From the NCBI RefSeq assembly GCF_044324875.1, contig NZ_CP172185.1: 64,000 nt of DNA; one strand, 5' to 3'. The first letter of the stretch is position 1; every line of letters begins with the position of its first letter. The position numbers were made by a program, and so were the translations under genes. The stretch comes from Escherichia coli. GTDB taxonomy: Bacteria > Pseudomonadota > Gammaproteobacteria > Enterobacterales > Enterobacteriaceae. This document shows, in pieces, positions 19,633 through 20,289 of the stretch. The notes under the pieces are model-generated. The model saw only the letters and a list, made by a program, of their open reading frames with translations, was not told the DNA's origin and made no database searches.

Positions 19633-19755
19633 GTATATTTATCAGGATCTAAAGGTTTATAATCCTGGATATATCAGGTATATAATCCAGTACCAGCATG
19701 TCTCATAAACATACCCGTTCAGGAAAACCAAACGACAACAGATGAGGCTTCAGAA

Positions 19756-20133
19756 ATGAACAGTAAAGAAAATTTGCGCAGTAGATTTTTGCAACTAATG
19801 ACAGAAAAAGTTAAATCAGCGCTACTTCCACTTATGGTGGATAATAACGAAGCAACGAGCAGCATCCTTGCAGACCCTTACGGTAAACTCTCGCATAAAA
19901 CGCTGGATATTATTATGAGTGCATTAACACCCCATATGCTTCAACACCTGAAACAAGATATTAACGCATGGGTGAATGAAGAATTGAGCCCCCCCTGTTC
20001 ATGGGACAGACATTATGCATGGCAGCAAAAAATGAGGATTTTCAATTCATTATCACTAAAGTTCAGAGAACCGAAACAGCGTCCCTTCCCTCTGGAATCA
20101 GACAAAAAACAACCTGATCCCACAGGCCCGTAA
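19756..20133 (+). CDS. Hypothetical cytoplasmic protein (125 aa) encoded by a moron between endolysin and holin, opposite strand
   Basis: ORF track; GAGG 8 nt before ATG; own upstream TATAAT hexamers and inverted repeat, own downstream hairpin; AT-rich. Confidence 0.55.
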   Translation: MNSKENLRSRFLQLMTEKVKSALLPLMVDNNEATSSILADPYGKLSHKTLDIIMSALTPHMLQHLKQDINAWVNEELSPPCSWDRHYAWQQKMRIFNSLSLKFREPKQRPFPLESDKKQPDPTGP

Positions 20134-20289
20134 TATTTTGAATACCGTGATTATTGATATCACAATGAAAGCTATTCCGCACAGTTATGCCCTGCTCCCC
20201 ACGGGGCATGTCTCATGAAACGTTCCGGGCGTTTCATGTTCCCGGATTTTGTTAAAAGGTATATTATCCCCTCACTCCCGGGATATTCG

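Follow-up and report, generated by a model that had tools for sequence, protein, structure and literature searches.

We analysed a 64,000-nucleotide stretch of Escherichia coli DNA (contig NZ_CP172185.1 of assembly GCF_044324875.1), which we call the window. It carries the late region of a lambdoid prophage in which the genes for the holin and for a signal-anchor-release (SAR) type endolysin are separated by a spacer of 657 bp (19633–20289). Within this spacer lies an open reading frame (ORF) of 125 amino acids at 19756–20133 on the plus strand, opposite to the lysis genes. We find that the ORF is a genuine protein-coding gene under purifying selection and that it belongs to phrog_1853, a family which is already catalogued but has no assigned function. 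In our best explanation, to which we give about an even chance, it is a moron-type accessory gene of lambdoid prophages that works by the mechanism proposed below. An earlier reading of the same DNA, here called the original prediction, had described a self-contained moron between holin and endolysin. The coordinates and strands of the ORF and its neighbours, and the lysis families of the latter, are all borne out.

The match to a protein family, the conserved homologues, the pattern of substitutions and a confident structure model together identify the ORF as a real gene. The core coding region comprises 104 codons (19756–20067, plus strand) and encodes a phrog_1853 protein: residues 1–102 align to positions 57–158 of the 159 positions of the phrog_1853 profile (E = 4.3e-41). 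A search with this profile retrieved 21 out of 1.84 billion cluster representatives, all from the same family, and the named hosts of its members are Escherichia, Shigella or Salmonella only. The homologues range from 79% down to 21% identity, are usually 104–105 amino acids long and end in F-x-x-L-S-x-x-R. Residues P41, G43, W72, E76, Q91 and K92 are invariant, the start (MN-x-K/D) is conserved and the start codon keeps its position across lineages. The original prediction had recognised no family for this protein. Besides the profile match, however, gp06 of the Shiga toxin 2 (Stx2) converting phage 86 (YP_794053.1) is 48% identical to it and lies, as in the window, on the opposite strand within the lysis cassette. 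A 90-amino-acid protein of E. coli O157:H7 (WP_000138558.1), termed a hypothetical protein by the NCBI Prokaryotic Genome Annotation Pipeline (PGAP), is 78% identical.

Seven loci, the window and six homologues, were compared pairwise at the codon level. The ratio of nonsynonymous to synonymous substitution rates (dN/dS) was 0.13–0.37 in 20 of the 21 comparisons; the one other pair was saturated. The values of the window copy against its relatives (0.13–0.31) are not above those among the other copies. An AlphaFold2 model built from a 13-sequence alignment has a mean predicted local distance difference test score (pLDDT) of 81.5, with values of 86–92 over residues 11–100. It consists of five helices (residues 3–27, 31–39, 47–56, 59–76 and 85–103). 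The protein is basic, with an isoelectric point of 9.1 at full length and of 9.2 for the 104-residue core.

No signal peptide, transmembrane segment or lipobox was found in the protein. Its N-terminus is hydrophilic and the maximum Kyte-Doolittle value over 19 residues is only 0.76, in agreement with the original prediction that a signal peptide is absent. The protein is thus predicted to be soluble and cytoplasmic. Searches against PADLOC and NCBIfam, with their defence and toxin–antitoxin models included, gave no match at E ≤ 1, and the sole Pfam match was DUF6880 with E = 0.15. No sequence relatives were found in the PDB. With the structure model as query, Foldseek retrieved only family members from AFDB50 and nothing from BFVD. 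Profile and structure searches, which the original prediction had named as a check, therefore place the protein in phrog_1853 and give no functional match in PDB, AFDB50 or BFVD. The family, fold and hydropathy searches revealed no enzyme, membrane, DNA-binding or defence signature.

A moron is an independently expressed insertion in a phage operon (definition of Juhala and Hendrix, quoted in PMC2629481). Variable presence at the same position in related phages is one of its marks, and this is what we observe. The phages Perceval, BP-4795 and PhiR55_1 share the DNA immediately upstream of the endolysin, yet the phrog_1853 ORF is absent there, and in YDC107_1 and PhiR46_1 a related holin (75% identity) directly abuts the lysozyme gene with no ORF in between. 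A base composition apart from that of the flanking genes is another mark. The guanine-cytosine (GC) content is 0.366 in the leader plus 5′ untranslated region (UTR) and 0.390 in the ORF core, against 0.521 in the endolysin, 0.532 in Rz, 0.480 in the holin and 0.513 in the whole window. Absence from related phages, low GC content and purifying selection all agree with the claim of the original prediction that an accessory gene has been inserted into the cassette.

Of 5426 complete E. coli genomes, 673 (about 12%) contain family DNA (at least 68% identity). These are mostly Shiga-toxin-producing strains, chiefly O157:H7, O145, O55:H7 and O111. Among 50,697 phage records such DNA is present in 4, all of them Stx2 phages. 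The window allele itself is found in 19 of the 5426 genomes. P0035, a member of the commonest cluster (90 amino acids), occurs in at least 997 contigs, and frameshifted variants occur in 1–7 contigs. Two homologous loci, L007 and L010, have kept a full-length ORF although their endolysin is truncated and the neighbouring phrog_1085 gene (see below) is fragmentary. Several prophage remnants and one O157:H7 prophage also carry genes for PerC-family regulators, no more than 1–2 kb away from phrog_1853 (L007–L009, 3317–4330; L011, 1382–1696).

Sequence comparison shows the spacer to be mosaic, made up of an endolysin leader, the gene module and an orphan stretch. The leader comprises 40 bp (19633–19672, minus strand) and is delimited by DNA homology that runs from the endolysin up to 19672. 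In Stx2 phage 86, Perceval, BP-4795 and PhiR55_1 the homology covers the endolysin together with these 40 bp and goes no further. The last three of these phages carry no phrog_1853 gene and the inverted repeat of the leader is present there too. This repeat (CAGGAT at 19643–19648, ATCCTG at 19662–19667) had been counted among the signals of the ORF by the original prediction. It does exist, but its spacer is 13 nt and not 12, and it belongs to the endolysin leader. Of the two TATAAT hexamers that had been reported, both are present. The first (19658–19663, plus strand) is situated in the loop of the leader repeat and is strain-specific: it is kept in no homologous locus and reads TATAGC in the 99.7%-identical copy of E. 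coli ECCNB12-2, which over all 657 bp differs from the window at 19662 and 19663 only. Because the leader is conserved in phages that lack the ORF and because the first TATAAT is TATAGC in ECCNB12-2, neither the repeat nor this hexamer is a signal of the ORF, and the repeat does not represent an operator around the ORF promoter.

Many Stx and related phages have conserved this leader ahead of the same type of endolysin, and the consensus of its repeat is CCAGGGATT...AAATCCTG. The endolysin ATG has no obvious Shine-Dalgarno sequence next to it. Translation of the SAR endolysin may be controlled by the leader structure.

The gene module (about 19673–20077, plus strand) is of low GC content and specific to loci that bear the ORF. 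It contains the second TATAAT (19681–19686, plus strand), our candidate for the −10 element of an ORF promoter. This hexamer is conserved in the module-specific DNA: it is intact in L011, L010 and L007, reads TACAAT in L004 and is always located about 73–79 nt before the ATG. We counted 9 TATAAT on both strands of the 64-kb window where 20 ± 5 would be expected, and two copies only 23 bp apart constitute a local enrichment. Since the motif is rare in the window, the second TATAAT is not trivial, and an own promoter for the ORF is plausible from these sequence features. The 5′ UTR (19699–19747, plus strand) contains the 5′ arm of a hairpin, TGTCTCA (19699–19705), and the Shine-Dalgarno sequence GAGG (19744–19747), 8 nt before the ATG, which the original prediction had named as ribosome-binding site. 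L004, L007, L010 and L011 have the complete hairpin TGTCTCA-N13-TGAGACA just downstream of the −10 element. The fold z-scores are not significant.

In distant lineages a conserved GC-rich stem CGCCAGTG...CACTGGCG takes its place, 60–80 nt upstream of the ORF homologue (L002, about 2880–2920; L003, L015 and L016). In Stx2 phages the hairpin formed by CGCCAGTG, loop and CACTGGCG is followed by a T-run. This stem could be a 5′-terminal stem–loop of the mRNA or the terminator of some other plus-strand transcript. Short direct repeats were also noted around the ORF. GCATGTCTCAT(A/G)AA occurs at 19696–19709 and 20206–20219 with a score of 25, compared with a maximum of 26 after shuffling, and AGGT(T/A)TAT(A/T)ATCC occurs in three copies (19653–19665, 19676–19688 and 20257–20269). 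The short direct repeats that flank the ORF may be due to chance.

The third part of the spacer is an orphan segment of 212 bp (20078–20289) which lies where the convergent partner gene is normally found. Homology to the canonical cassettes stops at 20077, that is, 7 bp past the position of the old stop codon. Apart from the 19 E. coli genomes with the window allele and one IMG/VR contig from this prophage, nothing matches the orphan segment; tblastn gave no match to phrog_1085 proteins and blastn no match at any other locus. Two hairpins are found in this DNA, at 20214–20238 with an 11-bp stem and at 20186–20210. The region 20125–20295 does not fold better than shuffled sequences (z = −1.3), and no Rfam family matches the spacer region.

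The convergent partner deserves closer attention. Across eleven further loci the constant neighbour of the phrog_1853 ORF is a late-strand gene of the uncharacterised family phrog_1085, arranged tail-to-tail with it and with the C-terminal motif RIGRCMGYLQVAAEIE...NPPFK...YLKGRI. Either 8 bp separate the 3′ ends of the two genes, or there is an overlap of at most 33 bp. The full pair is present in L002–L006 and L015–L019 (for example at 2968–4098 in L002, 4001–4899 in L004, 3501–4395 in L015 and 1425–2264 in L016), and remnants of the partner are left in L007, L010 and L020–L022. Several loci retain an intact ORF next to nothing but pieces of phrog_1085. L015 is Salmonella, as judged by its phrog_1085 protein, and L016–L019 are metagenomic or read-archive contigs. 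In the Stx-type cassettes of E. coli the pair is located between holin and endolysin, and in the distant lineages upstream of a different holin. As the pairing persists in either position, phrog_1853 and phrog_1085 travel as a unit.

We suggest that the gene operates as follows. A weak sigma-70 promoter of its own with the −10 element at 19681–19686 would drive the ORF against the direction of the late operon. Transcription would take place in the repressed state of the prophage, with the late operon switched off. The product would be a small basic cytoplasmic protein of five helices, which would act by binding to another protein and not by catalysis or membrane insertion. This is the most economical mode of action because the gene is selected as a protein, and the protein is cytoplasmic and devoid of a catalytic or nucleic-acid-binding signature. 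Ancestrally the gene is one half of the convergent two-gene unit with the late-strand phrog_1085 gene. Since this partner is conserved, the likeliest original role would be to modulate or neutralise the phrog_1085 protein, or a process under the control of the latter. In the prophage of the window the 212 bp of orphan DNA have taken the place of the partner and the stop codon is mutated. We further infer a benefit for the host, which would be independent of lysis because the ORF remains intact where its neighbours decay.

One could go further and regard the pair as a two-gene accessory module, new to the literature, of lambdoid phages of enterobacteria. A small cytoplasmic protein made in the lysogen, or an antisense transcript, or both, would hold the late partner in check until induction and thereby act as a safety catch for the timing of lysis, or else as a prophage-encoded exclusion or abortive switch. 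Solitary copies as in the window, in O157-type and in decayed prophages would then be retained 'immunity-like' halves. We consider this extended proposal unlikely. Through the convergent pairing, two 'hypothetical proteins' become a two-gene unit that can be tested, and this pairing is the most promising lead of our analysis. The atypical copy of the window is not the best place to follow it up; a canonical locus would be better suited.

Several observations speak against an active and independently expressed moron in the window. A consensus scan found no full sigma-70 promoter for the ORF, and the −35 partners of both TATAAT hexamers match at no more than 3 of 6 positions. The conserved UTR hairpin is lost, as its 3′ arm reads TCAGGAA; AUGAGG is now the predicted pairing partner of the 5′ arm. 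No own terminator was found: the scan called none on the plus strand and neither of the two orphan hairpins has an adjacent canonical U-tract; in the canonical loci there are only 8 bp, or an overlap, before the convergent gene. The downstream hairpin of the original prediction thus exists at 20214–20238, but it lies in orphan DNA, which does not share the descent of the gene module, and is not a recognisable terminator. The stop codon of the family is lost, which adds 21 residues and yields 125 amino acids instead of the canonical 104–105. In a near-identical E. coli genome PGAP labels the ORF as a pseudogene ('incomplete, missing C-terminus'). The original prediction had overlooked both the stop loss and this label. 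Frameshifted variants of the window allele are found in public assemblies (P0002, P0004 and P0005), and in the complete genome CP127316 the match extends over 435 bases compared with 436 in the query, which suggests an indel. Finally, no trace of the phrog_1085 partner was detected in the window by tblastn or blastn. With two of the four proposed signals belonging to the endolysin leader, no demonstrable terminator and the usual partner absent, the term self-contained is not supported and the anatomy proposed with it is right only in part. The name moron is reasonable.

These observations could be explained if the ORF is a decaying remnant, that is, a non-functional pseudogene at the recombination junction between a foreign holin module and an endolysin module of the Stx-phage type. 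The extension (20068–20133, plus strand) results from GAA at 20068–20070 in place of the TAA of the family, with a new TAA at 20131–20133. L004, L007 and L010 read TTCAGATAA where the window reads TTCAGAGAA (TTC AGA TAA versus TTC AGA GAA). The 21-residue tail is modelled as disordered (pLDDT 52–62). Decay would also fit the break of homology 7 bp past the old stop codon, the missing partner, the mutated arm of the UTR hairpin, the pseudogene label, and the rarity of the allele (19 of 5426 genomes) together with its frameshifted variants. However, neither a stop codon nor a frameshift interrupts the 104 core codons, and the copy has kept its start codon, GAGG and −10 element. The dN/dS values of the window copy are no higher than those of other copies, and the 125-amino-acid protein recurs unchanged in 19 complete genomes as well as in a cluster of 38 sequences. 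A disordered C-terminal tail is often compatible with folding. In our view decay to a pseudogene is a serious rival, although less likely than not. The window copy is a solitary, C-terminally extended version of uncertain activity that is possibly decaying.

The arrangement of the gene also raises the question whether transcription itself or the RNA is what matters. A convergent promoter would produce an RNA antisense to the intercistronic region between holin and endolysin, and ancestrally to the 3′ end of phrog_1085. By transcriptional interference or by cleavage of double-stranded RNA it would damp leaky or late expression of the SAR endolysin, the spanin or the partner. SAR endolysins are exported without the holin and leaky expression is therefore dangerous. 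The gene invariably runs against the late operon; at its 3′ end it comes to within 8 bp of the 3′ end of the partner or overlaps it, and no terminator lies between the two. At a different moron site in these prophages, convergent pairs of small RNAs have been described (PMC4104026). Yet the purifying selection at the amino acid level and the well-folded predicted protein show that the protein itself is selected, and a conserved frame of 104 codons would be needless for such a role. Moreover the gene persists in L007 and L010, where the late genes to be regulated are deleted. A main function in transcription or RNA is in our judgement quite unlikely, and a purely antisense role is unlikely to be the whole story, but such an effect could coexist with a function of the protein.

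According to a third explanation the product of the ORF is made during lytic growth and is dedicated to the regulation of lysis, for instance in the manner of an antiholin or by controlling the endolysin. It would account for the location of the gene, which is always in or directly beside the lysis cassette, and in the close lineages a common DNA block ties the ORF to one endolysin type. The Salmonella lineages, however, place the pair upstream of a different holin and endolysin type, and the ORF is retained where the endolysin is truncated. The strand of the gene opposes the Q-dependent late transcript, so that it cannot be expressed together with the lysis genes. The protein differs from known holins, antiholins and spanins in having no transmembrane segment, signal peptide or lipobox. 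It shows no homology to any lysis or lysis-accessory family, and the lysis categories of PHROG are matched by the neighbouring genes only; a conventional lysis-accessory protein, which the original prediction had named as the contrary outcome, is thus not what we find. We regard a dedicated lysis regulator as very improbable.

For a moron-type accessory gene the closest functional analogy is bor of phage lambda. Like the ORF, bor is a small opposite-strand gene next to the lysis genes with a patchy distribution among relatives, and it is annotated in the same style in phage 86 and Perceval. Its expression in lysogens has been demonstrated. The position is different, as bor lies downstream of Rz and the ORF between holin and endolysin, and the two proteins are not homologous: Bor is an outer-membrane lipoprotein with signal peptide and lipobox, whereas the protein encoded in the window has no hydrophobic segment. 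If expressed in lysogens, the latter would add a cytoplasmic, non-lipoprotein member to the short list of accessory genes in lambdoid lysis cassettes. As the family is concentrated in Shiga-toxin-producing strains, the biology of Stx phages would be affected even if the gene had only a minor part in prophage stability, superinfection or induction.

Among the homologous cassettes, that of O157:H7 strain F8092B has the same layout of holin, gap, ORF and lysozyme as the window, and the same endolysin type is found downstream of gp06 of phage 86 and of the O157 homologues. Phage 86 differs in that a gene of the 'YdfR family' lies between gp06 and the holin and in that gp06 is convergent with gp05, a phrog_1085 gene; genes of these kinds are absent from the window. 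Genes of the YdfR/DUF1327 family and of phrog_1085 fill the same variable slot between holin and endolysin. They are restricted to enterobacterial prophages and are as uncharacterised as the ORF, but they lie on the late strand, are co-transcribed with the lysis genes and are not homologous to it. Our literature search found no paper that addresses the ORF gene, or YdfR or DUF1327 in lysis cassettes. In Perceval (L012) an unannotated ORF of 79 amino acids is located at 2068–2307 on the plus strand, in a gap of 370 bp between a YdfR-like gene and the endolysin. It is likewise on the opposite strand and its sequence is unrelated to phrog_1853. This suggests that the slot between holin and endolysin repeatedly hosts small opposite-strand genes. 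Other accessory elements are known from the late region of prophages of enterohaemorrhagic E. coli, namely the convergent anti-small-RNA pairs AgvB and AsxR (PMC4104026) and the Pas small RNAs (bioRxiv 10.64898/2026.05.13.724894). These are non-coding RNAs of 51–60 nt between PR′ and the holin, whereas the ORF is protein-coding and lies between holin and endolysin.

The late region of the prophage spans 18635–22892 and is read on the minus strand. In the order of transcription it starts with the antiterminator Q (22218–22892), followed by a membrane protein of phrog_1521 (21254–21967). Two tRNA genes (20978–21131) lie between Q and the holin. The holin has 90 amino acids (20290–20562, minus strand) and belongs to phrog_1350 (E = 3.1e-29), whereas cassettes of the phage 86 type use a class II holin (PF04971) instead. 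The endolysin has 177 amino acids (19099–19632, minus strand; phrog_7, E = 5.5e-62) and is followed by Rz (18635–19117) and Rz1 (18697–18882), both on the minus strand. Its translation starts with a hydrophobic, SAR-like segment rich in glycine and alanine and contains the motif E-x8-D-x5-T; in L001 it is called 'lysozyme' by PGAP. The prophage DNA is 99.5–99.7% identical to a prophage in the 19 complete E. coli genomes mentioned above, many of them from chickens.

With regard to the tRNA genes, the first is tRNA-Arg(tct) at 20978–21054 and the second, with the anticodon cat at 21056–21131, is assigned to Met by ARAGORN and to Ile by RefSeq. After both of them a third, degenerate tRNA-like match is found at 20903–20975 on the minus strand (Rfam tRNA, 19.8 bits, below the gathering score). 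In the same prophage a toxin–antitoxin pair of the ParD/ParE type is annotated on the opposite strand upstream of Q, between the replication and Q regions (L001, 11085–11647).

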